Below are positions 37,141 through 51,772 of a DNA stretch of 64,000 nt, one piece after another; within the stretch, counting starts at the first letter, position 1, and each line of letters starts with the position of its first letter. The stretch is from contig CAWDVR010000002.1 in assembly GCA_963805975.1 (NCBI GenBank), forward strand, positions 320,001 through 384,000, read 5' to 3'. The notes below the pieces were generated by a model. The model saw only the letters and a program-made list of their open reading frames with translations. It did not search any database and was not told the DNA's origin. A program made the translations under genes and the position numbers. Source of the DNA: an uncultured Acidobacteriota bacterium (GTDB lineage: Bacteria > Acidobacteriota > Thermoanaerobaculia > Multivoradales > SZUA-115).

Positions 37141-37779
37141 ATGAAGAAGCGTAGTTGGCTGTTGTTCGCCGCGGTGGCCCTCGTGACCGCCGCCCTCTCC
37201 GTCACCCTGCTGCCGCCTCCCCAGGAAGCGGAAGCGCAGACCGGCTTCCACAGCTACGCCGCCAAGTTCGTCTGCGGGTGGAACCGTTCGAACGTCGGCT
37301 TCGTGGATCCCACCGTGGCCCCCGCGGGCGAGGCGACCGTCAAGCTCGGCAACTACGCCACCGAGGTCAACATCTTCAACCCGCAGCAGGTGAGCCAGGA
37401 CCTCAAGAAGCGCGTCGTGGTGCTCTATCGCAGCGACACCGTGTTCCCGCCGATCGGCCGCGAGCCCAACGCCATCCCCGAGACCGGCACCGATTCGATC
37501 ACCCTTCCCTTCTTCCACGGCACCATGGACGACTGCAACCGCATCTACCGGCTCGCCGGCATCCCGATCGTCAACCCGCCGGTTCTGGCGATCGGCTACC
37601 TGGTCATCCAGAGCCCGCTGGAGCTCGACGTGACCGCGGTCTACACCGCCGAGCTGTGCTCCGACAAGGGTGTCGGCGGCGGCCCCGCGAACCTCTGCAA
37701 CAACGTCACCGCGGGCACCAACTACAGCGTCTCGCTGTCGATCGACGTGGAGCAGATCGCCGGGAAGTTCATCCAGTAG
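37141..37779 (+). CDS. Exported hypothetical protein (YAAKFVCG family), paralog 1
   Basis: AAGGAG SD; signal peptide ending AEA; YAAKFVCG..VKLGNYATEVNIFNP..MDDCNRIY..LSIDVEQ. Confidence 0.85.
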   Translation: MKKRSWLLFAAVALVTAALSVTLLPPPQEAEAQTGFHSYAAKFVCGWNRSNVGFVDPTVAPAGEATVKLGNYATEVNIFNPQQVSQDLKKRVVVLYRSDTVFPPIGREPNAIPETGTDSITLPFFHGTMDDCNRIYRLAGIPIVNPPVLAIGYLVIQSPLELDVTAVYTAELCSDKGVGGGPANLCNNVTAGTNYSVSLSIDVEQIAGKFIQ

Positions 37780-37801
37780 CAGCAGCGCCCGCCTCGTTCA
37801 C

Positions 37802-37839
37802 AGAGAGCCCTCCGCCGCCCCCGCGCCGGAGGGCTCTCT
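37802..37839 (+). terminator. Intergenic stem-loop (terminator or stabiliser)
   Basis: AGAGAGCCCTCCG..CGGAGGGCTCTCT, a 13-bp stem with only a short T tail. Confidence 0.5.
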
Positions 37840-37866
37840 TCCACGGCTCGACCAAAGGAGCTCACC

Positions 37867-38523
37867 ATGAGAACCCGCCACTGGTTGCTGGTCGCCGCGG
37901 CGACTGCCACCGCCGCCGTCGCCGCCATCCTCTTCCTGCCGGCCGCGCCCCAGGCCGAGGCCCAGGACAAGGGCTTCGTCTACAGCTATGCCGCGAAGTT
38001 CGTCTGCGGCTTCAACTCTTCCAACCTCGGCGTCGGAAAGCCGGGAGAAAAGGGTGGCGAGGCCACGGTCAAGCTCGGCAACTACGCCACCGAGATCAAC
38101 ATCTACAACCCCAACAGCGACACCCATGTGCAGAAGAAGCTCGCGGTGCTCTACGACAGTTCGACCCACTACCCGCCGCAAGGCCGCGAGCCCAACGTGA
38201 TCGACGCGCGGGTCGTGGACGCCATCGGCCTCGGCAACAGCCAGGCCACCATGGACGACTGCAACCGCATCTATCAGCTCTTCTTCGGCGGCCTCCCGGG
38301 GGCGTCCCCGCCGCCGCTCCTCATCGGCTGGCTGGTGATCGAGTCCCAGGTGCCCCTCAACGTCACCGGGGTCTACACCGCCGAGCTGTGCAGCGACTGG
38401 TCCATCGACGGCCTGACGCGCGAGTGGGTCTGCCGCCAGAACGCCGACTTCGCCGACCGTCACTACGGCGTGGGCCTGTCGATCGACGTGGAAGAGGTGA
38501 CAGGGACGCGGATCGGGGGGTAG
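37867..38523 (+). CDS. Exported hypothetical protein (YAAKFVCG family), paralog 2
   Basis: AAGGAG SD; signal peptide; same motifs as paralog 1. Confidence 0.85.
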   Translation: MRTRHWLLVAAATATAAVAAILFLPAAPQAEAQDKGFVYSYAAKFVCGFNSSNLGVGKPGEKGGEATVKLGNYATEINIYNPNSDTHVQKKLAVLYDSSTHYPPQGREPNVIDARVVDAIGLGNSQATMDDCNRIYQLFFGGLPGASPPPLLIGWLVIESQVPLNVTGVYTAELCSDWSIDGLTREWVCRQNADFADRHYGVGLSIDVEEVTGTRIGG

Positions 38524-39355: not shown

Positions 39356-40372
39356 TCAGGAGGGAGGCTGGAAGAGCATCGGCCCGCAGATCACGCGGTT
39401 GAGGCCGCCGATCACGACGGGCGGCACAAGGGCCGCGCCCGCCACGGCTGGCAGCCGGCTCACCTCCCCGACGACACACGGGAGCGGGTAGTCCTTCTCG
39501 ACATCCCATTGCGCCACCGTCACCTCTCCGCAGTAGGGTCCTTTCAGCGTCTGCGCTCGCCGCTCCCGCAAGTCGAAGAAGCTAAAGAAGTGCCCGTTCC
39601 CAGCCTGTTGGCTGCAGGTCGCCTCACCAACCACGGGCATGTAGTTCCCGATGAGGACGTCGATACTCCGTGACCTTCCCCTGGGGTAGAGCGTCAAAGG
39701 ATCGTCGCAGTCATTGGGATCGCTCAGCGAGCACAACGTGAACTCGACCGGGCCGTTGTTGCTCTGCAACGGGATCTCCAGCAGGACCAGGTCCGCGACC
39801 GCCTGCTTGAGGCCGAAGACCAGCCAGTCATCACGGTCCGCCTTGAAGCTCATCGCGTGGATTACGGTTTCCTCGTCGTCTTCGAAATCCGCAACGCTGT
39901 AGACGCTGGCATCGATCTGGCCGTCGATGAAGACGACGCTCTTCAGGTCGCCGAGGTCTCCCTGACCCAGGAAGTTCTTCCTGATCGCGCCCGTGGTCGT
40001 GGAAAGGAGGCTCATCGTGGGCACCCACGAGAAGTCCGGGAGAGTGGCTGCTGTCGGGACGACTCCGGTGAAGGTGTTGCTCGCCTCGACGTTGGCGATC
40101 TCTCGGGGTGTCCATTCGCCATCCTCCTTGATGCCTTCCAGGCCTACTCTCTTCCCGTCGAGGCTCAGCTGGTCGATCGTGCATGCATTCAGCTCCGCGT
40201 CGTCGTCCTCCAACGAGCGGATTTGAATCAGGTTCTTCCTCTCATAAACCAGCCACGGCGCATGGTGGGTTGCTTCCGGCAACGACACCACGAGCTCGAT
40301 GTTGTTGCCATCCATCGTGACGTTCGGCACCAGGGCCGCGTAGCCCATGATGAACAGCCGCAAGGTCGCCAT
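39356..40372 (-). CDS. Hypothetical 338-aa beta-rich protein co-transcribed with the CHAT protease
   Basis: AGGAGG SD with ATG 40372, 35 nt after the CHAT stop; acidic, several Cys, no signal peptide. Confidence 0.75.
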   Translation of the reverse strand: MATLRLFIMGYAALVPNVTMDGNNIELVVSLPEATHHAPWLVYERKNLIQIRSLEDDDAELNACTIDQLSLDGKRVGLEGIKEDGEWTPREIANVEASNTFTGVVPTAATLPDFSWVPTMSLLSTTTGAIRKNFLGQGDLGDLKSVVFIDGQIDASVYSVADFEDDEETVIHAMSFKADRDDWLVFGLKQAVADLVLLEIPLQSNNGPVEFTLCSLSDPNDCDDPLTLYPRGRSRSIDVLIGNYMPVVGEATCSQQAGNGHFFSFFDLRERRAQTLKGPYCGEVTVAQWDVEKDYPLPCVVGEVSRLPAVAGAALVPPVVIGGLNRVICGPMLFQPPS

Positions 40373-40407
40373 CGCATCCCTCCTGCCAATAGAAAGCTGC
40401 CTGACCG

Positions 40408-43400
40408 TCAGGCCGCGAGAAGTTGATAGCCGCTCCACGAGCGGACCCGGGAGAGGTCCCGGTCCCGCGATGCGATGCTTCGCCTCTGGGCCTCGGCCAG
40501 CGCCAGCGCGGGATCTCGGTTCTTCGAGAACGCCTCGTGGAACTCGATCGCCAGCCGGGATGCCGCCGAGTCCTCGACCTCCCACAGGGTCGCCACCACG
40601 TGCGGCACGCCCGCGCGCAGGAAGGCGAGCGCGAGGCTCAGGCTGCCTTCCGAGCGCGACAGGCGGCCGGCGGAACCACCACAGGCGTTGAGGAACACCA
40701 AACCGGGCATGGGTCCCCGGAGCCGCGAGATCTCGGCGGCGTAGACCAGGCCTGTCTCGCTGTCCCTCCCGGGCGCGAGCAGGAGGCGTGCGTGGTCAGA
40801 GCGCGAGCGGGCGGGAAGCACATGGGCGGCGACATGGGCGAGCTCGTGGCTGCCCAGCCCGACGGTGAAAGCCTCGGGAGTCGCGAGAGCGCCGGTCAGG
40901 ACCGTGGCACCGGGATAGACGTCACCGACCTGACGGGCCTCCCGTTCGGCGGCGGGCAACGAGCCGAGACCGGGCGTGAGAGCAGGGTCGAAGCTCGGGT
41001 CGCCGACTGCCAGAAGCCTCGGGCGGGCAGTCACCGGGCGGCTCCCGAGGCTGGCCAGGCTCGCAAGATAGAGACGGGAGCTGGGCGCGACGACCAGGCT
41101 CGTAGCCGCTACCAGGTAGTCCGAGGACCGCGAAAGCCAGAGCGCCGCGAAAGGCAGCTCGTGGAGACAGCCATCCGGCACGACGATCGTCACCTCCGAG
41201 GGAGGAAGGAGGGTGGTGTCGGTCCCCAACAGGACCCCGGACAGCTCTACCCCGAGACTGCGGATCTCGGTCTCGTCGTCGCGGTCGATCGCCAGGCGAA
41301 ATGCCGCCACGCGTTCGCAGAGCTCGGACTCTCCCATCTCGCGGATCGCGAAGCTCGTATGCTCGCGGCTCAGGCTCCACACCAGCGTCTTGGCGGGAAA
41401 GACTGCGTACTCCAGCAGGGCAGCACGAGCGGGCAGACGAGCGGCGACCTGGCGGAGACCCAAGCTGGCGAGCGATGCCGGCAGGCCATTCTTCGCACCC
41501 AGCAGATCCTCGGTGACCTGCGCCCGCCCGTCCTCGACGATCCGGAAGGCGCTCTCGGCATCGCCGCCCCTCTCAGCCTCCAGGAGGGCCAGCTCATCGT
41601 AGATATCGACGACGCGATCCAGAAAAGACACTCTCTCCTCGGCAGCCACCGCATACCGCTGCGTCTCGACCTCGGCGACCGCTTCTCGGAGCGTCCTCGC
41701 CTGTTCCTCTTTTCGCCCTGCGGCACCGAGAGCTCGAGCCAGCTCGAGGTAGGTCTCGGGCAGCTGCGGCCCGTACCTCGTGTGCCGGTAGGATTCGACC
41801 GCCGCCGAGAGGCGATCAGCGGCCCTGGTCGGGTCGGAGCGCCCGAGGATCTCTCCTTCGACTCTGGAGAGGTCTGCGAGAAAGTTCAGGCGAGACTCTT
41901 CGTCGTGGATGGCTGCGGCGTTATGGCGAGCCGTCGCTACGTCGGCCAGGGCCTCGTCGTCCAGCCCTGCCCTATGTCGCAGAGATGCCCGCCACATCGA
42001 GGCTGCGGCGACCGCCGTGGGCTGGCCGGCCTGCTCGGCCTCGCGCACGGCAGCGTCCTGGAAGTAGAGAGCGACGCGCGGGTGACCATTGCCCGAGGCG
42101 GCAATGCCGGCTCCTTCGAGGAGGAGCTGACGGCGGCGCGACTCCTGGACCGCACCCAGTCTGCGTATCGCCTCGTAGGCTTCCAGCCAAGCCGCCTGCG
42201 GATCGCCGATGATGTGGTAGTACTCGAAGAGTCCCTGATGTGCAGCGGCGATCCCCTCCTCGTCACGAACAGCTTCCGCAATCCGCAATGCGGATCGATA
42301 GCTCCCCAGAGCGTGGTCGTAGTCTGCCTGGACGAATGCGAGGAGGCCCTCGAGCAGGAGGGCAGAGGCCAGGGAGTGCTTGTAGCACTTTTCTCTCGCG
42401 GTTCCGGTGACAGGGCGCAGGCGCGTCGCCGCCTTACCGTAGGCACCCATTCGAAACGAACAGAGCGCCAGGTGACGTTCGGCTTCGAGAGCCAGAGGGC
42501 TGCCCTGGCGCCGGAGCAGGCGCGCCGCGAGTCGGAGTGAGCTCTCGGCCGCGGCCACCTCGTAGCGATCGAGCTTGCGGAGCCCCGCGAGCAGGTGCTC
42601 GTGGCCTTCCGCCAGAGCGATGAGCGGACCTGGGCCGTCGCTCGAGGTCCCGAGGTTCTCGATCGCGTCGAGAGCCTCCACCAGCAGTCCATCACCCGTG
42701 GCGCGACGAACCGCCGTGGCCAGGGTTCGCGCGGAACGCAGACTTCGTGCGGCCTCGCTCGAATCTCGGCGCAGGACTGCTGCGGCCCAGCCACCGAAGA
42801 GATCCTCCAAGAGGAGCCGCCGAACCCCGGTCGTCCCTGTCGCTTTGTCTGCTGCCGTGAGCTCCAGCTTTTCTTTCGGGAGCCGCCTCCAATCCGGGTC
42901 CGGCTCACGGCTCAGACAGAGGCGCCACGCTTCCGGCTCCTCCCAGACGATCGATGAGCGGCCCATGGCCAGCGCCCGATTGCAGGCGGCGGCCCCGCCT
43001 CCATCCCTGGCGATGGCGTTCTCCGCGGCTGCGAGCCCCGAGAGGTAACCGAGCGGGTCCCCTCTCCGATCGCCTTGCTCCAGATACGCTGCCGCCAGGT
43101 TGCTCCACCACACCCCAGCGTCCGGCTCTTTTTCCGTCGCCTCTTCCAGCAGGGCCACGGCGCCTGGGATGTCGGCCCGGAGAAGGTTGACCAGCGCGGC
43201 GGCATTGAGGTGCTCGCCAGTCCGTTCCCGATTGAGGTCCGCGTCGATCCTGCGTGCTGCCGCGACGCAGCCTGGGCACGCCAAGTCGTACCTCTTCCCG
43301 GGCTCGTAGGGAGCGTACTCGAGGCCCACGAGGCGGCCTTCGGTGGGGCGCACGGGACCAAGAGCTGCGAGCAGATCCTCTAGCGGTGGTCGGCTCGGGG

Positions 43401-43524
43401 GATGGTGGTCGACCGAAATGAGCGCGAGCATCGTGGCGGCAAAGCCCGCGACGCCTAGAGCCGCCGCTATGCCAGCCTGAGACCGCACCCTAGACCCAAC
43501 TCGTCGCTCAGACCCGAGACCCAC
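40408..43524 (-). CDS. Membrane-anchored TPR-CHAT (caspase-HetF-like) protease
   Basis: N-terminal hydrophobic helix, TPR helices, IVVPDGCLHELPFAAL, LPAAEREA, His motif HVAAH, Cys motif VFLNAC, FLRAGVPHVVATLWEVED. Confidence 0.9.
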   Translation of the reverse strand: MGLGSERRVGSRVRSQAGIAAALGVAGFAATMLALISVDHHPPSRPPLEDLLAALGPVRPTEGRLVGLEYAPYEPGKRYDLACPGCVAAARRIDADLNRERTGEHLNAAALVNLLRADIPGAVALLEEATEKEPDAGVWWSNLAAAYLEQGDRRGDPLGYLSGLAAAENAIARDGGGAAACNRALAMGRSSIVWEEPEAWRLCLSREPDPDWRRLPKEKLELTAADKATGTTGVRRLLLEDLFGGWAAAVLRRDSSEAARSLRSARTLATAVRRATGDGLLVEALDAIENLGTSSDGPGPLIALAEGHEHLLAGLRKLDRYEVAAAESSLRLAARLLRRQGSPLALEAERHLALCSFRMGAYGKAATRLRPVTGTAREKCYKHSLASALLLEGLLAFVQADYDHALGSYRSALRIAEAVRDEEGIAAAHQGLFEYYHIIGDPQAAWLEAYEAIRRLGAVQESRRRQLLLEGAGIAASGNGHPRVALYFQDAAVREAEQAGQPTAVAAASMWRASLRHRAGLDDEALADVATARHNAAAIHDEESRLNFLADLSRVEGEILGRSDPTRAADRLSAAVESYRHTRYGPQLPETYLELARALGAAGRKEEQARTLREAVAEVETQRYAVAAEERVSFLDRVVDIYDELALLEAERGGDAESAFRIVEDGRAQVTEDLLGAKNGLPASLASLGLRQVAARLPARAALLEYAVFPAKTLVWSLSREHTSFAIREMGESELCERVAAFRLAIDRDDETEIRSLGVELSGVLLGTDTTLLPPSEVTIVVPDGCLHELPFAALWLSRSSDYLVAATSLVVAPSSRLYLASLASLGSRPVTARPRLLAVGDPSFDPALTPGLGSLPAAEREARQVGDVYPGATVLTGALATPEAFTVGLGSHELAHVAAHVLPARSRSDHARLLLAPGRDSETGLVYAAEISRLRGPMPGLVFLNACGGSAGRLSRSEGSLSLALAFLRAGVPHVVATLWEVEDSAASRLAIEFHEAFSKNRDPALALAEAQRRSIASRDRDLSRVRSWSGYQLLAA

Positions 43525-43719
43525 CCGATGGGGCTCTGAGCCCCGTCACCGTCGCAGGCGCCGTCTTGGCGCCAGGTTAGTTGCAAGATTGACATATGCT
43601 ACCAACCCTGTGACTCCGAAATGGTCGCTGTGGGCCGAGGCCGAGCCAGGAGAGGATTTGGCGCATCCTAGCCCGTTTAGACGGACACCGCCTTCCGCTT
43701 TCCGCCGGAGGCCCAGGCC

Positions 43720-44526
43720 TTGAGCACCGCCCGGCCGGGTGGCGGTCTGCCGCCCAAGACCCCTGAACAGCTTTTCCTGGAGCACCTGCCGCTGGTCGAG
43801 CGCGCGGCGCGGCATGCCTGTTGCCGCTACCACTTCTCGCCGCAGGAGGCCGAGGACTTTCTGTCCGAGGTGAAGCTGAAGCTGATCGACAACGGCTACG
43901 CGGTGCTGCGGAAGTTCGCCCACGGCAGCTCGCTCGGCACGTTCCTCGCCACGGTGGTCCACAATTTCGCCAAGGACTTCGCGAACCATCTGTGGGGCAA
44001 GTGGCGGCCCTGCGCCGAGGCTACGCGGCTCGGCCCGGACGCCGTGCTGCTCGACCGGCTGCTGACCCGCGAGGGGCTGACGCTCGCCGAGGCCACCGCG
44101 ACCATGGTGCACAACTTCAAGGTGGGGCTCACCCCGGCCGCCATCGCCGAGGTCGCCCTGCGGCTGCCGGCCCGCGCGCCCCGCGTCCAGGTGGGAGAAG
44201 AGGCGCTGGGCGCAGAGCCCAGCCGGGAGAGCTCCGGGGTGGACCTCCTCCTGGCAACGGACCGGGCCCGGCTGTTGGACCGTGCGCTGGCCGGATTGCG
44301 GGTCGAGCTTGCGAAGCTGCCGACCGAGGACCGTCTCATTCTGCGGTCCTGGAGCGAAGGGCGGAAGGTCGCGCAGATCGCGCGAACGCTCCGCTGCGAT
44401 CAAAAGCCCCTGTATCCCAGGATCGCCAAGATTTGCGCCAAGCTCAAGGCCGGCCTCCTCGCGCTGGGGATCGGCGAGGCGGAGGTGCGCGAATTGCTAC
44501 GACTGGACGAGGCGGATGGGCGATGA
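43720..44526 (+). CDS. ECF-like RNA polymerase sigma factor
   Basis: Region-2-like FLEHLPLVER..EAEDFLSEV.LKL..SSLGTFL; region-4-like LPTEDRLILR..EGRKVAQIARTL. Confidence 0.8.
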   Translation: MSTARPGGGLPPKTPEQLFLEHLPLVERAARHACCRYHFSPQEAEDFLSEVKLKLIDNGYAVLRKFAHGSSLGTFLATVVHNFAKDFANHLWGKWRPCAEATRLGPDAVLLDRLLTREGLTLAEATATMVHNFKVGLTPAAIAEVALRLPARAPRVQVGEEALGAEPSRESSGVDLLLATDRARLLDRALAGLRVELAKLPTEDRLILRSWSEGRKVAQIARTLRCDQKPLYPRIAKICAKLKAGLLALGIGEAEVRELLRLDEADGR

Positions 44527-44625
44527 GGATCGAGAGAAAGTTGTTCAGAGCGAGCACGATGGGAAGAGCAATACTCGGCTTCGTGTCCGTCCAATGCCGG
44601 GTAGACATATGGGAATCTCATCGCC

Positions 44626-45672
44626 ATGAAACTCTCTAGAGTGCCGGCGCGCCCCGGCTGCCCCTCCGCCGAGGACCTGGCAGCCTTCGTCGACGGCCGC
44701 CTCCAGGGCCTCCAGCGGGAGCGCATCCTGGAGCACCTCGCCTCCTGCGAGGACTGCTACCAGGTGTTCGCTGGCGTGGTCGACTTCCAGGAGCAGGAGG
44801 GGGAGGATGGAGACTCTGCCGGCGAGCATCAAGGAATGCAGGCGGAGGTCGTCCCCTTTCCGCAGGCGCCGGCAGGCTCGCCGGTGAGGCGACGGTTCCG
44901 TGGCATGCCGGCGCTGCGCTGGGCTGCCTGCCTGTCGGTCGGTGTGGGTGGGGCCCTCCTGAGCTACGCCTACTTCGCGGTGCCTCCCCACCTCACCACC
45001 CGCGGGCTTCTGGCGTCTCGGGAAGCCAGTCCGGCCTCACTCCAGGGCGAATCGTGGCTCGAGAACAACACGGACCGAGGGCCGGGCGCCATTCCTTCGG
45101 GTGGCGCAGCCGCGTTCATGCTCGGGGTCTATTGGACAGATCTCGAGGCGGCCGCGATCTCGGGCGACTTCAGGATGCTGCCCGAGATCGCCAGGAGGAT
45201 CCATGGCCTGGTGGCGGAAACCACGGTGGACGGGAGAGCCGAGGAGGCCCTGGTCTATGGCCTGGACCCCGAGGTGGTCTTGCTGGTGAAGAGGCTCGCG
45301 GAACAGCCCGCCACGCAGTCCGTGCCCGCGCTCCGGCAGGAGCTGGACAAGGCGGAGCGGCGGATCGACACTTTTTCCAAGCGCGAAGAGTGGCCCGAGG
45401 TCACACGGGGCAAGTGGGCCGCGGCCGGCTGGCTGGCGGCCAAGGCCGGGGATGCGGCGTTTTTCGCCGAGTCCAGGAACCGCCGCTACCTTGCATGGCT
45501 GCTTCGCCGGAGCGAGGCGCTCTTTCTCCCCGAGGAGGAGGTGGCGGAGCTGGCGGCGATCCAGACGGCGATCCGCAGTGCGGCGCCCGAGGCGCCTCCT
45601 TACCAGGAGCTCGTGGAGAGGTTCGAGAGGGTCATCAACTACTACGCCAACGACCTGGACGCTCCGTACTGA
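44626..45672 (+). CDS. zf-HC2 (ZAS) anti-sigma factor with TM and helical C-terminal domain
   Basis: CPSAEDLAAFVDGRL..EHLASCEDC (HxxxCxxC); TM WAACLSVGVGGALLSYAYF; follows the sigma gene. Confidence 0.8.
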   Translation: MKLSRVPARPGCPSAEDLAAFVDGRLQGLQRERILEHLASCEDCYQVFAGVVDFQEQEGEDGDSAGEHQGMQAEVVPFPQAPAGSPVRRRFRGMPALRWAACLSVGVGGALLSYAYFAVPPHLTTRGLLASREASPASLQGESWLENNTDRGPGAIPSGGAAAFMLGVYWTDLEAAAISGDFRMLPEIARRIHGLVAETTVDGRAEEALVYGLDPEVVLLVKRLAEQPATQSVPALRQELDKAERRIDTFSKREEWPEVTRGKWAAAGWLAAKAGDAAFFAESRNRRYLAWLLRRSEALFLPEEEVAELAAIQTAIRSAAPEAPPYQELVERFERVINYYANDLDAPY

Positions 45673-48421: not shown

Positions 48422-49351
48422 CTACACCTCGCCCGGCGTCGAGGTGGGGGCGCCGTTGTTGCCGTTGCCGTCGACCCGGTTGTTGCCGAACGAGATGATC
48501 TGCCCGCTACCCACCGCCTGCAGACCGTTGCCGTTGTTGACCGAGGTCACGCCGCTGACGCGCACGATGGCGTTCAGGCCCTCGGAACGCACGCCGGCGT
48601 TGGAGTTGCCCGAGGCGATGGACGATTCGAGGTTCATCTCCACGGCGGCCGAGGTCGAGATCGCGACGAAGCCGTTGGTGGTGGCGCCCGAGGACACGGA
48701 GTTGCTCACCGTCACCTCGGTGCGGTCCTCGACCCGCACGCCGTAGCGGTTGTTGTCGACGTTCACACGGTCGAGGCTGGCGATGAGCGAGCCGGTCGCG
48801 GTCGGCTTGAGCAGTATGCCGCCGCCCGAGACGCCGTTGTTGTTGCGCACCACGGTGTTGACCACGTAGAGCTCCGCGGCGGTGCTCGGCTCGGCGTCGA
48901 TACCGACGCCGGTGAAGCCCTGGATCGCGCAGTTCTCGACGTGCAGCGTCCCGCCGGCGAGGAAGCGGATGCCGTTGATGCCGTTGCCGGCGCCCTCGAT
49001 GACCAGCCCGCGGAGAGTGACGTTGGAGCCGGCCGGGGCGTTGATGATCACGCCGTTGACGAGCGAGGCCAGGATGCCGCCTTCGGAGCCGTCGGCGACG
49101 ATGGAGATCGACTTGGTGATGTTCACCGCGCCGAAACCGCCGGGGTCGAGGACGCTGATCTCACCGCCGGTGGCGGTCTTGGAGATGGCGCCCGCAAAGG
49201 TCTTGCAGGGTGCCGTGCGGCTGCACGGGTTGGCATCGTTGCCGACGCCCGAGACCCAGGTCCGGGTGGCCTGGGCCTGGGCGCCCGAGGCAAAGGCGAG
49301 CAAGGCGAGACCGGCGAGCACAACGGTGAGCAGCTTGGTACGAGAGAGCAT
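48422..49351 (-). CDS. Exported right-handed beta-helix repeat protein, copy A
   Basis: Signal peptide AQA; TWVSGVGND.NPCSRTAPCKTFAGA; Asn/Gly-rich parallel beta-helix repeats. Confidence 0.88.
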   Translation of the reverse strand: MLSRTKLLTVVLAGLALLAFASGAQAQATRTWVSGVGNDANPCSRTAPCKTFAGAISKTATGGEISVLDPGGFGAVNITKSISIVADGSEGGILASLVNGVIINAPAGSNVTLRGLVIEGAGNGINGIRFLAGGTLHVENCAIQGFTGVGIDAEPSTAAELYVVNTVVRNNNGVSGGGILLKPTATGSLIASLDRVNVDNNRYGVRVEDRTEVTVSNSVSSGATTNGFVAISTSAAVEMNLESSIASGNSNAGVRSEGLNAIVRVSGVTSVNNGNGLQAVGSGQIISFGNNRVDGNGNNGAPTSTPGEV

Positions 49352-49451
49352 GGGAACCTCCTTGGGTTGGTTGGGTAGCGGAAGGCCGATACGCGTGGGT
49401 TAGGCCCACGAGGGGCCCATCCGTTACCCGAGAGTGTGAGTGGTTTCTTAC

Positions 49452-50381
49452 CTATACCTCGCCCGGCGTCGAGGTGGGGGCGCCGTTGTTGCCGTTGCCG
49501 TCGACCCGGTTGTTGCCGAACGAGATGATCTGCCCGCTACCCACCGCCTGCAGACCGTTGCCGTTGTTGACCGAGGTCACGCCGCTGACGCGCACGATGG
49601 CATTCAGGCCCTCGGAGCGCACGCCGGCGTTGGCGTTGCCCGAGGCGACGGACGATTCGAGGTTCATCTCCACGGCGGCCGAGGTCGAGATCGCAACGAA
49701 GCCGTTGGTGGTGGCACCCGAGGACACGGAGTTGCTCACCGTCACTTCGGTACGGTCCTCCACCCGCACACCATAGCGGCTGTTGTTGACGTTCACGCGG
49801 TCGAGATGAGCGATCAGCGAGCCGGTCGCGGTCGGTTTCAAGAGGATGGCGCCGCCCGAGGCGCCATTGTTGTTGCGCACCACGGTGTTGACCACGTAGA
49901 GCTCCGCGGCGGTGCTCGGCTGGGCGTCGATGCCCACGCCGTTGAAGCCCTGGATCGCGCAGTTCTCGATGTGCAGCGTCCCGCCGGCGAGGAAGCGGAT
50001 GCCGTTGAGGCCGTTGCCGGCGCCCTCGATGACCAGCCCGCGGAGCGTGACGTTCGTACCGGCCGGGGCGTTGATGATGACGCCGTTGGTGAGCGAGGCC
50101 AGGATGCCGCCCTCGGAGCCGTCGGCGACGATGGAGATCGACTTGGTGATGGTCACCGCACCGAAACCGCCGGGGTCGAGGACGCTGATCTCGCCGCCGG
50201 CGGCGGTCTTGGAGATAGCGCCCGAGAAGGTCTTGCAGGGCGCCGTGCGGCTGCACGGGTTGATGTCGTCGCCCACCCCCGAGACCCAGGTCCGGGTGGC
50301 CTGGGCCTGGGCGCCCGAGGCGAAGGCGAGCAAGGCAAGGCCGGCGAGCACGACGGTGAGCAGCTTGGCGCGAGAGAGCAT
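49452..50381 (-). CDS. Exported right-handed beta-helix repeat protein, copy B
   Basis: 309 aa, collinear and near-identical to copy A. Confidence 0.88.
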   Translation of the reverse strand: MLSRAKLLTVVLAGLALLAFASGAQAQATRTWVSGVGDDINPCSRTAPCKTFSGAISKTAAGGEISVLDPGGFGAVTITKSISIVADGSEGGILASLTNGVIINAPAGTNVTLRGLVIEGAGNGLNGIRFLAGGTLHIENCAIQGFNGVGIDAQPSTAAELYVVNTVVRNNNGASGGAILLKPTATGSLIAHLDRVNVNNSRYGVRVEDRTEVTVSNSVSSGATTNGFVAISTSAAVEMNLESSVASGNANAGVRSEGLNAIVRVSGVTSVNNGNGLQAVGSGQIISFGNNRVDGNGNNGAPTSTPGEV

Positions 50382-50601
50382 GGAAGAATCTCCTTGAGTT
50401 TGGTTGCGTAGCGGAAGGCCGGTGCGCCTGGATCAGGCTCGCGCGAGGCCCGGCCGTTACCGAGGAGTGTGGGGCACGCCGAGGAAGGGCGAAACCCTCC
50501 TAAGAGGAGGTAGCCAGCCCCCCCAAAAGGGAGGGCAGAAGAGACCCAACCCCACCCTCGCCCACAAGCGGGAGGAGGGGCGGGAAGGATGGGGGAGCTG
50601 C

Positions 50602-51543
50602 CTAGATCTGCGGAGGCACGAGCGTCGTGGTCGGCGCGCCGTTGTTGACCGTGTTGCCCTGCGACCGGTTGTTGCCGAAGGAGATGATCTGGCTGCCGCC
50701 CACGCTCTGCAGACCGTTCGAGTTGTCGACCGACATCACGTTAGAGATCCGCACGGTGGCCTGCGCGTTCTCGGCGCGCACGCCCGCGGTGCCGTTGTTG
50801 GCGGCCACCGAGCTTTCGAGGTTGAGCTCCACGGCACCGGCCACGGTCGAGATGGCCAGGAAGCCGTTGCCCGAGTTGCCGGCGGCGGTGCTGTTGCGTA
50901 CCGTCACCTTGCTGCGGTCCTCGACCCGCAACCCGAAGCGGTTGTTGTGCATCCGCACGTTGTCGAGAAATGCAGCGGCCGAGCCGGCGAGGCCCGGCTT
51001 GACGAGGATGCCGCCACCCGAGGCGCCGTTGTTGTTGCGCACCACGGTGTCCGTCACGAAGAGCTCGGAGACGCCCGCTGGCTCGAAGTCGATGCCGACT
51101 CCGTTGGTGGCCGTGATCACGCAACCCTCGACGTGGAGGGCGCCGCCGGCGATGAAGCGGACGCCGTTGATGCCGGTGCCGAAGCCTTCGATGATCAGGC
51201 CGCGGATGGTGACGACGTCGTTGACGCCGGCGTTGACGATCACGCCGGTGGTGCCGGCGGACAGAATGCCGCCCTCGTCGCTCGCGGCGACGATCGAGAT
51301 CGACTTGGTGACGGTCACGCCTCCGAAGCCGCCGGGGTCGAGGACGCTGATCTCACCGCCGGCGGCGGTCTTGGAGATCGCGCCCGCGAAGGTCTTGCAG
51401 GGCGCCGTGCGGCTGCACGGGTTGGCGTCGTCGCCCACGCCCGAGACCCAGGTGCGGGAGGCCTGGGCCTGGGCGCCCGAGGCGAAGGCGAGCAGTGCGA
51501 GCACGGCCAGCAGAGTGGTGAACAGCGTCGAACGGGTACGCAT
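50602..51543 (-). CDS. Exported right-handed beta-helix repeat protein, copy C
   Basis: AAGGAGG SD with ATG 51543; more diverged paralog of copies A and B. Confidence 0.88.
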   Translation of the reverse strand: MRTRSTLFTTLLAVLALLAFASGAQAQASRTWVSGVGDDANPCSRTAPCKTFAGAISKTAAGGEISVLDPGGFGGVTVTKSISIVAASDEGGILSAGTTGVIVNAGVNDVVTIRGLIIEGFGTGINGVRFIAGGALHVEGCVITATNGVGIDFEPAGVSELFVTDTVVRNNNGASGGGILVKPGLAGSAAAFLDNVRMHNNRFGLRVEDRSKVTVRNSTAAGNSGNGFLAISTVAGAVELNLESSVAANNGTAGVRAENAQATVRISNVMSVDNSNGLQSVGGSQIISFGNNRSQGNTVNNGAPTTTLVPPQI

Positions 51544-51772
51544 GGGGACCTCCTTCAGGTTGCAGTCGTATCGGGTGGACGTTCTGGTACCGGCCCCGAG
51601 CCGGTTTGAAGCCGCCTGCCGGCGGCGAGTACACAGAGGGCGGCAAGAAAGATGCTCGATCCTCCCGTGGGATCCCCCTAAGCTGCCACAGCGTAGGTCC
51701 GGCGTCAAGGGATATTCGCGGCCCGTTCCGGCCGAGAAGGGTGGGGGACGCCCGCTGCTAGGCTAGCCCGCC

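Follow-up and report, generated by a model that had tools for sequence, protein, structure and literature searches.

What does a CHAT protease do beside an alternative sigma factor and its anti-sigma factor? The question is raised by four genes in a 64,000-nt stretch of an uncultured Acidobacteriota genome (the window; C2:320001-384000 of the source genome, G000). The genes for the CHAT protein and for a 338-residue protein (the partner) form the left arm of a divergent unit, and those for the sigma and anti-sigma form the right arm. Our analysis indicates that the locus is probably a split switch of the type of DdvA/DdvS from Myxococcus xanthus, in which the CHAT protein would cut the anti-sigma at Arg151-Gly152 and thereby free the sigma. 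Other positions in G000 are given with their contig, relatives' loci carry L numbers, and proteins carry P numbers. The features on which the argument draws are as follows:

39356-40372, minus strand: partner open reading frame (ORF), 338 residues, with no Pfam or NCBIfam match
39386-39388, minus strand: codon of the invariant Cys329 of the partner
40262-40264, minus strand: codon of the invariant His37 of the partner
40408-43524, minus strand: CHAT ORF, 1038 residues, read as membrane anchor, scaffold, TPR and CHAT (PF12770, E 9.7e-44, plus weak TPR matches)
40681-40683, minus strand: codon of CHAT Cys948
40822-40824, minus strand: codon of CHAT His901
43411-43476, minus strand: N-terminal hydrophobic anchor of CHAT, residues 17-38, after a basic N-terminus with four Arg, read from the sequence
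43678-43703, minus strand: predicted promoter of the CHAT-partner operon, with -35 GGAAA (43703-43699) and -10 GTCCGTCTA (43686-43678)
43720-44526, plus strand: alternative sigma, 268 residues, with sigma2, an inserted four-helix domain and linker (about residues 95-172), and sigma4
44568-44594, plus strand: second copy of the promoter motif, before the anti-sigma gene, with its -10 core at 44585-44593
44626-45672, plus strand: anti-sigma, 348 residues (zf-HC2, E 1.4e-6)
45076-45081, plus strand: codons of Arg151-Gly152, the predicted site-1 cleavage site

All four ORFs are real, and the arms are separated by a 195-nt spacer (43525-43719), as the sequence-only reading of this DNA had described. 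The neighbourhood analysis by partner and by sigma shows that the four genes recur together widely, bearing out the four-gene unit that it had described. In G000, four CHAT genes are followed by a member of the 338-residue family, and three of these have a divergent sigma/anti-sigma pair. Members of the partner family occur in 26 of 61 related genomes and in 10 of 201 genomes across the phylum (both counts include G000), and CHAT lies directly upstream of the partner in 40 of the 48 loci fetched with the partner. Among 42 CHAT-partner units, 35 have enough flanking DNA, and a divergent sigma is present in 13 of these (11 with a long insert and 2 short), with a detected zinc anti-sigma beside 12 of the 13. 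The 24 loci fetched with the sigma, some on truncated contigs, hold an anti-sigma (a zf-HC2 transmembrane protein at +1) in 22 cases, a CHAT gene in 12 and a partner in 8; the named sigma relatives are mostly from Thermoanaerobaculia and other Acidobacteriota. Because these relatives are not independent, the counts are descriptions rather than tests.

The CHAT protein retains its catalytic residues. HVAAH begins at residue 897 and FLNAC at residue 944, which makes His901 and Cys948 the dyad, and this dyad is invariant in 52/52 aligned relatives, so the His and Cys noted earlier are indeed intact. Against the PDB, the CHAT profile scores highest with DdvA (8ROT, E 3.6e-23), whereas the single window sequence gives no match at E<=0.01. 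The Csx29 model NF041237 scores 15.2 bits on CHAT against a cut-off of 300, below membership. Most CHAT relatives have a hydrophobic or lipoprotein-like N-terminus (by eye), and hydropathy and homology predict a CHAT domain that faces the periplasm. G000 carries 20 CHAT genes, 14 of them within 4.5 kb of a sigma-like gene. In a CHAT tree (FastTree, supports not inspected), 9 of the 10 partner-less CHATs of G000 lie apart from the main partner-linked group and 8 share one branch, a pattern that is suggestive at most. Two multi-CHAT clusters of lower third-position G+C content (GC3), at C2:96056-120493 and C3:609-18485, have caspase-like, FHA-like and kinase neighbours (by eye). An orphan CHAT at C6:55537-58708 (L028) has the promoter motif upstream and its catalytic region in another frame, through a frameshift or an assembly error.

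The anti-sigma is the second half of the argument. The assignment of the HxxxCxxC transmembrane protein as an anti-sigma is confirmed by the zf-HC2 match, and its zinc ligands are of the CHCC type (Cys12, His37, Cys41 and Cys44). A transmembrane segment at about residues 98-118 is followed by a helical ectodomain that is homologous to the N-terminal part of DdvA-like proteins. The zinc-domain structure DdvA-Nt (8RLZ, E 4.1e-5) ranks second after RslA when the anti-sigma profile is compared with the PDB.

The two halves also occur as one protein. Fused ORFs with a zinc domain, a transmembrane segment, a scaffold, TPR and CHAT are found at L013, L118, L120 and L122, and 3 of the 4 are followed by the same partner. 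Those of L013, L118 and L120 follow a sigma of the same family, and behind the partner lies an S8 protease at L118 and a trypsin-like protease at L122. A profile of the four fused N-termini and four scaffold-bearing anti-sigmas matches DdvA residues 7-282 (E 1.6e-17) and aligns with the anti-sigma family of the window (HHalign, 99.3%), with Arg-Gly on Arg-Gly or Arg-Ser. The N-terminal region of free CHATs matches five scaffold-bearing anti-sigma ectodomains (E 2e-36 to 6e-25), and gives no match to the window's own anti-sigma ectodomain. The fused forms and the profile matches lead us to read the window's CHAT protein and anti-sigma as two pieces of a divided DdvA-like protein, both of which keep a scaffold. 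At L008, L009, L011 and L015, anti-sigmas of about 290 residues consist only of the zinc domain, transmembrane segment and scaffold, equivalent to the N-terminal third of DdvA; they lack TPR-CHAT and stand beside the same sigma family, often with a divergent second sigma.

A conserved dipeptide marks the place where the anti-sigma may be cut. Arg-Gly lies about 30 residues past the transmembrane segment in 21/25 anti-sigmas and in all 14 homologues of a second set, which includes the window's own and was gathered with an Arg-Gly-bearing profile. Arg-Gly or Arg-Ser is present in 8/8 fused or scaffold-bearing anti-sigmas (4 by pattern and 4 by eye). Among 46 free CHATs examined, the anchor motif was found in 23, and 3 of these have Arg-Gly at the equivalent place (background 8%). 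Within G000, Arg-Gly follows the transmembrane segment in 9/10 CHAT-linked proteins compared to 2/13 other transmembrane proteins downstream of sigma genes. Aligned through the fused relatives by two profile alignments, Arg151-Gly152 falls on Met131-Gly132 of DdvA, inside the V129-P140 loop, which is the linker closest to the opposite dyad in the cryo-EM structure (PMC11506125, Fig. 3B legend). The same paper notes that separases cleave after Arg. The idea that CHAT acts on the anti-sigma ectodomain, one of two substrates suggested earlier, thus gains from the conserved Arg-Gly site and from a predicted location of both on one side of the membrane. G000 also has a second, short anti-sigma type with Arg-Gly past its transmembrane segment, paired with ordinary extracytoplasmic function (ECF) sigmas and CHAT genes (C2:103833, C3:7992, C2:8853, C2:1141536, C3:257516 and C1 near 1477000).

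The sigma scores 41.2 bits against TIGR02937, just under the cut-off of 42.9, and both sigma2 and sigma4 are found. The long insert that had been noticed between regions 2 and 4 is borne out by a structure model, in which it forms a four-helix domain, predicted with confidence, at the place that sigma3 would occupy. The best Foldseek matches of the model are SigD and sigma28 (TM-score 0.31, E 1e-3), VIA did not isolate the insert, and Sigma70_r3 is not among the best 25 of the 60 families listed for the sigma. The insert may be a sigma3 that reads the GTCC extension of the promoter described below. No anti-sigma gene adjoins the second long-insert sigma of G000 (C3:134460-143179), whose neighbours are other ECF sigmas, a kinase-like gene and a CHAT gene.

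The promoter that matters is predicted to be an ECF-type motif, GGAAA-N12-GTCCGTCTA, rather than the TTGACA (43589) to which attention had been drawn in the spacer; a sigma-70 scan found no paired -10 for TTGACA (0 sites), and it was rejected as a sigma-70 promoter. GACGGAC occurs in 21/37 sigma-upstream regions compared to 0.8 expected from shuffles. Read on the opposite strand, the motif is G(G/A)AA-N12-13-GTCCGTC(T/C)A. An A holds a fixed position in 21/21 aligned sites, and the motif points away from the sigma and into the CHAT operon. Myxobacterial ECF promoters have AA and GT elements (PMC6061681), which the motif fits. In regions outside the training set, it is present on the sense strand of 25/34 sigma-to-anti-sigma gaps and on the antisense strand of 0/34. 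It precedes 24/47 CHAT genes (11 of them training sites) compared to 3/47 antisense, and 4/8 partner genes with no adjacent CHAT. The window site at 43678-43703 is the top-scoring site genome-wide, yet it belongs to the training set itself. The G000 scan gives 11 sites with scores of at least 19, with none in a 2-Mb Markov control, and 19 sites with scores of at least 17 compared to 5.4 expected. The candidate targets include an M6 protease, an S8 protease, a TPR protein, the frameshifted orphan CHAT and several genes with no assigned function. The proposal that the sigma drives the left arm therefore stands as far as a sigma-type promoter pointing into that arm; that the window's long-insert sigma is the one that reads it is our supposition. 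The order at L123 is the promoter motif, a small protein without a Pfam match that bears a caspase-like DCC motif, the partner and CHAT.

The partner has no known family, as stated before, with no Pfam or NCBIfam match; Pfam on 59 family members gives a single weak DUF5979 match, and PADLOC models give none. The family comprises 2,392 clusters at E<=0.001. His37 is conserved in 150/150 sequences, Cys329 in 149/150 and Asn243 in 142/150, and position 261 is His or Asp in 148/150. The AlphaFold model (150 sequences) is beta-rich, with a predicted local distance difference test score of 85.5 and a predicted template modelling score of 0.88, and shows a disordered loop (309-322) followed by a well-packed C-terminal strand that carries Cys329. 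A search with the model gives no Foldseek match in PDB or BFVD at E<=0.001 and none in VIA at Z>=2 among 48,161 chains, and this missing match does not prove a new fold. A PDB sequence search gives nothing usable, and the ESM Atlas likewise for two members. The 210 sequences gave too shallow an alignment for mean-field coupling to position His37 relative to Cys329. From these conserved residues, the partner is possibly an enzyme that uses His37 and Cys329, perhaps with Asn243.

Nearly all members of the partner family start at a conserved strand; 200/210 have fewer than 20 residues before Gly10, leaving no signal peptide, and a lipoprotein-like leader is seen in 1/210. Given the missing signal peptide, the default location of the partner is the cytoplasm, with the membrane between it and the CHAT active site, and the partner is more likely an output of the sigma than a CHAT substrate. 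We regard it as the likely leaderless output of the switch. Among 25 downstream same-strand genes, picked by eye out of 57, 15 encode proteases (S8, trypsin, C70/C39, C1 and M12); these are mostly leaderless (by eye), and the S8 protease of L118 seems to bear a leader. The partner is also fused, N-terminal to the protease, to S8 (P0068), C70/C39 (P0081 and P0139) and trypsin (L086, and P0069 by motif only). These fusions surfaced in the family cluster search, while a dedicated search for longer partner-family proteins found none. This third gene, the downstream protease, is missing in the window. At L073, L087 and L095, partner genes are duplicated in tandem in two or three copies.

Put together, the split switch would work as follows. 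A signal bound by the TPRs would align the CHAT dyad; by analogy with DdvA, the trigger could be envelope damage or an attacker's protein. The anti-sigma ectodomain would dock on the scaffold of CHAT, an arrangement equivalent to one half of the DdvA dimer, and the periplasm-facing TPR-CHAT would cut the membrane-bound anti-sigma at Arg151-Gly152. RseP, whose gene is present in G000, and cytoplasmic proteases would then complete the removal of the anti-sigma and free the sigma. The freed sigma would transcribe the CHAT-partner operon as positive feedback (amplification), the anti-sigma gene as negative feedback (reset), and about a dozen other targets including proteases. In relatives, a second protease of interchangeable class often lies behind the partner gene or is joined to the partner in one protein.

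Several observations weigh against this reading. Topology is based on hydropathy, without a signal-peptide predictor. Part of the HHalign score comes from the zinc domain that both sides share, and the ectodomains are just 13% identical. Arg-Gly is absent in 4/25 anti-sigmas, its contrast within G000 is based on paralogues and a crude transmembrane rule, and its alignment to DdvA is modest (E 4.8e-6). The second long-insert sigma of G000 (C3:134460) could read the same motif. A divergent sigma accompanies only 13 of the 35 assessable CHAT-partner units, and CHAT lies within the fetched, in part truncated, DNA of 12 of the 24 sigma loci. As for DdvA itself, section 9 of PMC11506125 presents its autoproteolysis as unproven, with dyad mutants that still repressed DdvS and no DdvA cleavage triggered by phage Mx4.

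The dyad-mutant result suits a different role for CHAT, that of a protective cap or sensor that binds the Arg-Gly loop and shields the anti-sigma while another site-1 protease cuts. According to section 9 of PMC11506125, RseP is blocked by the TPR-CHAT domain of DdvA, and repression persists in dyad mutants. Equal conservation would be expected of a motif for binding and of one for cleavage, and sigma-driven CHAT expression would become negative feedback. Such a cap would resemble RseB. We consider it quite unlikely, given a dyad that is invariant in 52/52 relatives and the mapping of Arg-Gly to a loop that faces the active site. CHAT could instead be a mere sigma-induced exported protease that acts on outside targets with no role in anti-sigma control, as the motif upstream of CHAT genes far from any sigma (e.g., C6:58708), the M6 and S8 proteases among the candidate targets and the 22/35 units with no divergent sigma would allow. 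We find this very unlikely, since anti-sigma and CHAT are found fused within the same sigma family, and Arg-Gly is enriched in CHAT-linked anti-sigmas and is not retained by free CHATs. Low GC3, together with the other CHAT and partner present at L001, the orthologous site, might suggest an insertion hotspot where the four genes stand side by side by chance. This is scarcely credible; many genomes, and two further places in G000, show the same arrangement with a shared promoter motif, and recurrence and motif counts already largely refute the idea.

The partner could also be a dedicated substrate of CHAT, as the sequence-only reading had suggested, or its inhibitor. CHAT would cut the loop before the invariant Cys and unleash the partner and the downstream protease, after co-export or on an inner-membrane breach, in a gasdermin- or serpin-like logic. 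The partner directly follows CHAT in 40/48 loci and also follows fused DdvA-like genes, and the distances between CHATs and between partners are correlated (Mantel r 0.31; 1/2000 permutations as high), but adjacent genes are expected to be co-inherited anyway. The disordered loop precedes Cys329, an Arg lies in the preceding 14 residues in 152/204 members, and the fusions to S8, trypsin and C39/C70 proteases fit as well, but there is no conserved site, with Arg/Lys-Gly in 67/204. Nearly all members lack a signal peptide, and half of the eight CHAT-less partner genes have their own sigma-type promoter. Cysteine counts in the partner show no disulfide parity signal (even in 108/177 compared to 278/481 in the genome control). 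We therefore judge this reading unlikely and the earlier suggestion unsupported. A larger scheme, which we put forward tentatively and regard as doubtful in its entirety, extends the split switch to a trans-membrane cascade. Here, periplasmic CHAT would cut Arg-Gly, and the sigma with its sigma3-like domain would induce a cysteine enzyme of a new class, with an all-beta fold not yet described. The catalytic Cys of this enzyme would sit on the C-terminal strand behind a cleavable loop. The partner would activate, carry or covalently capture a swappable second protease (S8, trypsin, papain-like or M12), with defence or cell death as the output.

Comparison with known systems places the locus closest to DdvA/DdvS, and not to Csx29-Csx30 or gasdermins, the parallels drawn earlier. 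As described in PMC11506125 (8ROT and 8RLZ), DdvA shares the zinc anti-sigma domain, single transmembrane segment, juxtamembrane linker, scaffold and TPR, as well as CHAT with its His-Cys dyad, an alternative sigma next door and available RseP; AA/GT promoter elements are likewise shared (PMC6061681). In contrast, anti-sigma and protease are separate, divergent ORFs in the window and TPR-CHAT is fused only in relatives; a helical domain is inserted in the sigma, a separate promoter is predicted for the anti-sigma gene, and the predicted site is Arg-Gly rather than Met-Gly. DdvA/DdvS regulates a CRISPR island that carries a cyclic oligonucleotide-based antiphage signalling system (PMC11506125), whereas the predicted targets here are the His/Cys protein and proteases. 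Table S7 of the DdvA survey does not list Acidobacteria (PMC11506125). The module is real and, by analogy, probably DdvA/DdvS-like in its working, yet not a member of the DdvA family.

In Craspase (Csx29-Csx30-CASP-sigma), TPR-CHAT also cuts a separate anti-sigma and frees an ECF sigma with in-locus targets (PMC10028731), but the window's protease is membrane-anchored by prediction and its anti-sigma is a zinc transmembrane protein. No Cas genes or CRISPR array were seen among the neighbours by eye, with no genome search aimed at Cas7-11. The ECF54 group resembles the window in its ECF sigma, its conserved TPR-CHAT and subtilase neighbourhood and its proposed proteolytic control, and differs in being actinobacterial and described without an anti-sigma, with a carboxypeptidase-regulatory domain at +1 (PMC7826278; PMC8999054); the window system has an Acidobacteriota host and a zinc anti-sigma at +1. 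The partner of the window has no Pfam or PADLOC match, probably lies on the other side of the membrane from CHAT and is predicted to have a sigma promoter of its own, unlike bacterial gasdermins, where a conserved partner gene stands beside interchangeable protease classes, and unlike protease-effector defence modules. In those modules, a conserved partner gene (MBL, alpha/beta hydrolase, Pepco or EACC1) likewise lies beside interchangeable proteases (PMC12642450; classes compared: caspase-like, trypsin and S8). PADLOC gives no match for the window's four genes, and only a subtilase-model match for 12 candidate targets. From DdvA and the protease-rich output, we infer a possible role in defence, for which PADLOC gives only weak subtilase and LmuA matches. 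The literature search, which covered subscription journals and supplements incompletely, found no description of the split system or of the partner family.

The base composition and surroundings of the locus were also compared. GC3 is 0.777 for CHAT (2.5th percentile), 0.838 for the partner (7th), 0.848 for the anti-sigma (9th) and 0.881 for the sigma (17th), against a genome median of 0.923 across 3,465 predicted genes. The reduced GC3 bias reported for the left arm is thus seen in CHAT and the partner, but the right arm is low too. The orthologous site L001 retains the flanks and the sigma, and its CHAT and partner are replaced by different paralogues. A vapBC pair does flank the left arm as described, but elsewhere it is seen at the same position only at L001. 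The flanking features of the window are as follows:

37141-38523, plus strand: two tandem paralogous secreted proteins (212 and 218 residues) with the motif YAAKFVCG, without a Pfam match and kept at L001
38551-39248, minus strand: vapBC pair, not a conserved part of the module
48422-51708, minus strand: three tandem near-identical secreted beta-rich proteins of about 309 residues, with RTWVSG right after the leader

Toxin-antitoxin-like pairs also lie near L003, L085, L090 and L116 and at C4:455412-456070 in G000 (by eye, uncounted).

The analysis adds a mapped candidate cleavage site, a predicted promoter and an unclassified His/Cys protein family to what was seen in this DNA. Because protease and substrate are separate here, with a single predicted Arg-Gly scissile bond and a promoter for a reporter, the question of a caspase-like site-1 protease becomes directly testable. 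The partner family, large and unannotated, with a confident model and invariant His and Cys, is a good target for a new enzyme class. With so many CHAT genes in one genome, most of them near a sigma-like gene, switches of this type appear to form an important layer of signalling in these bacteria.

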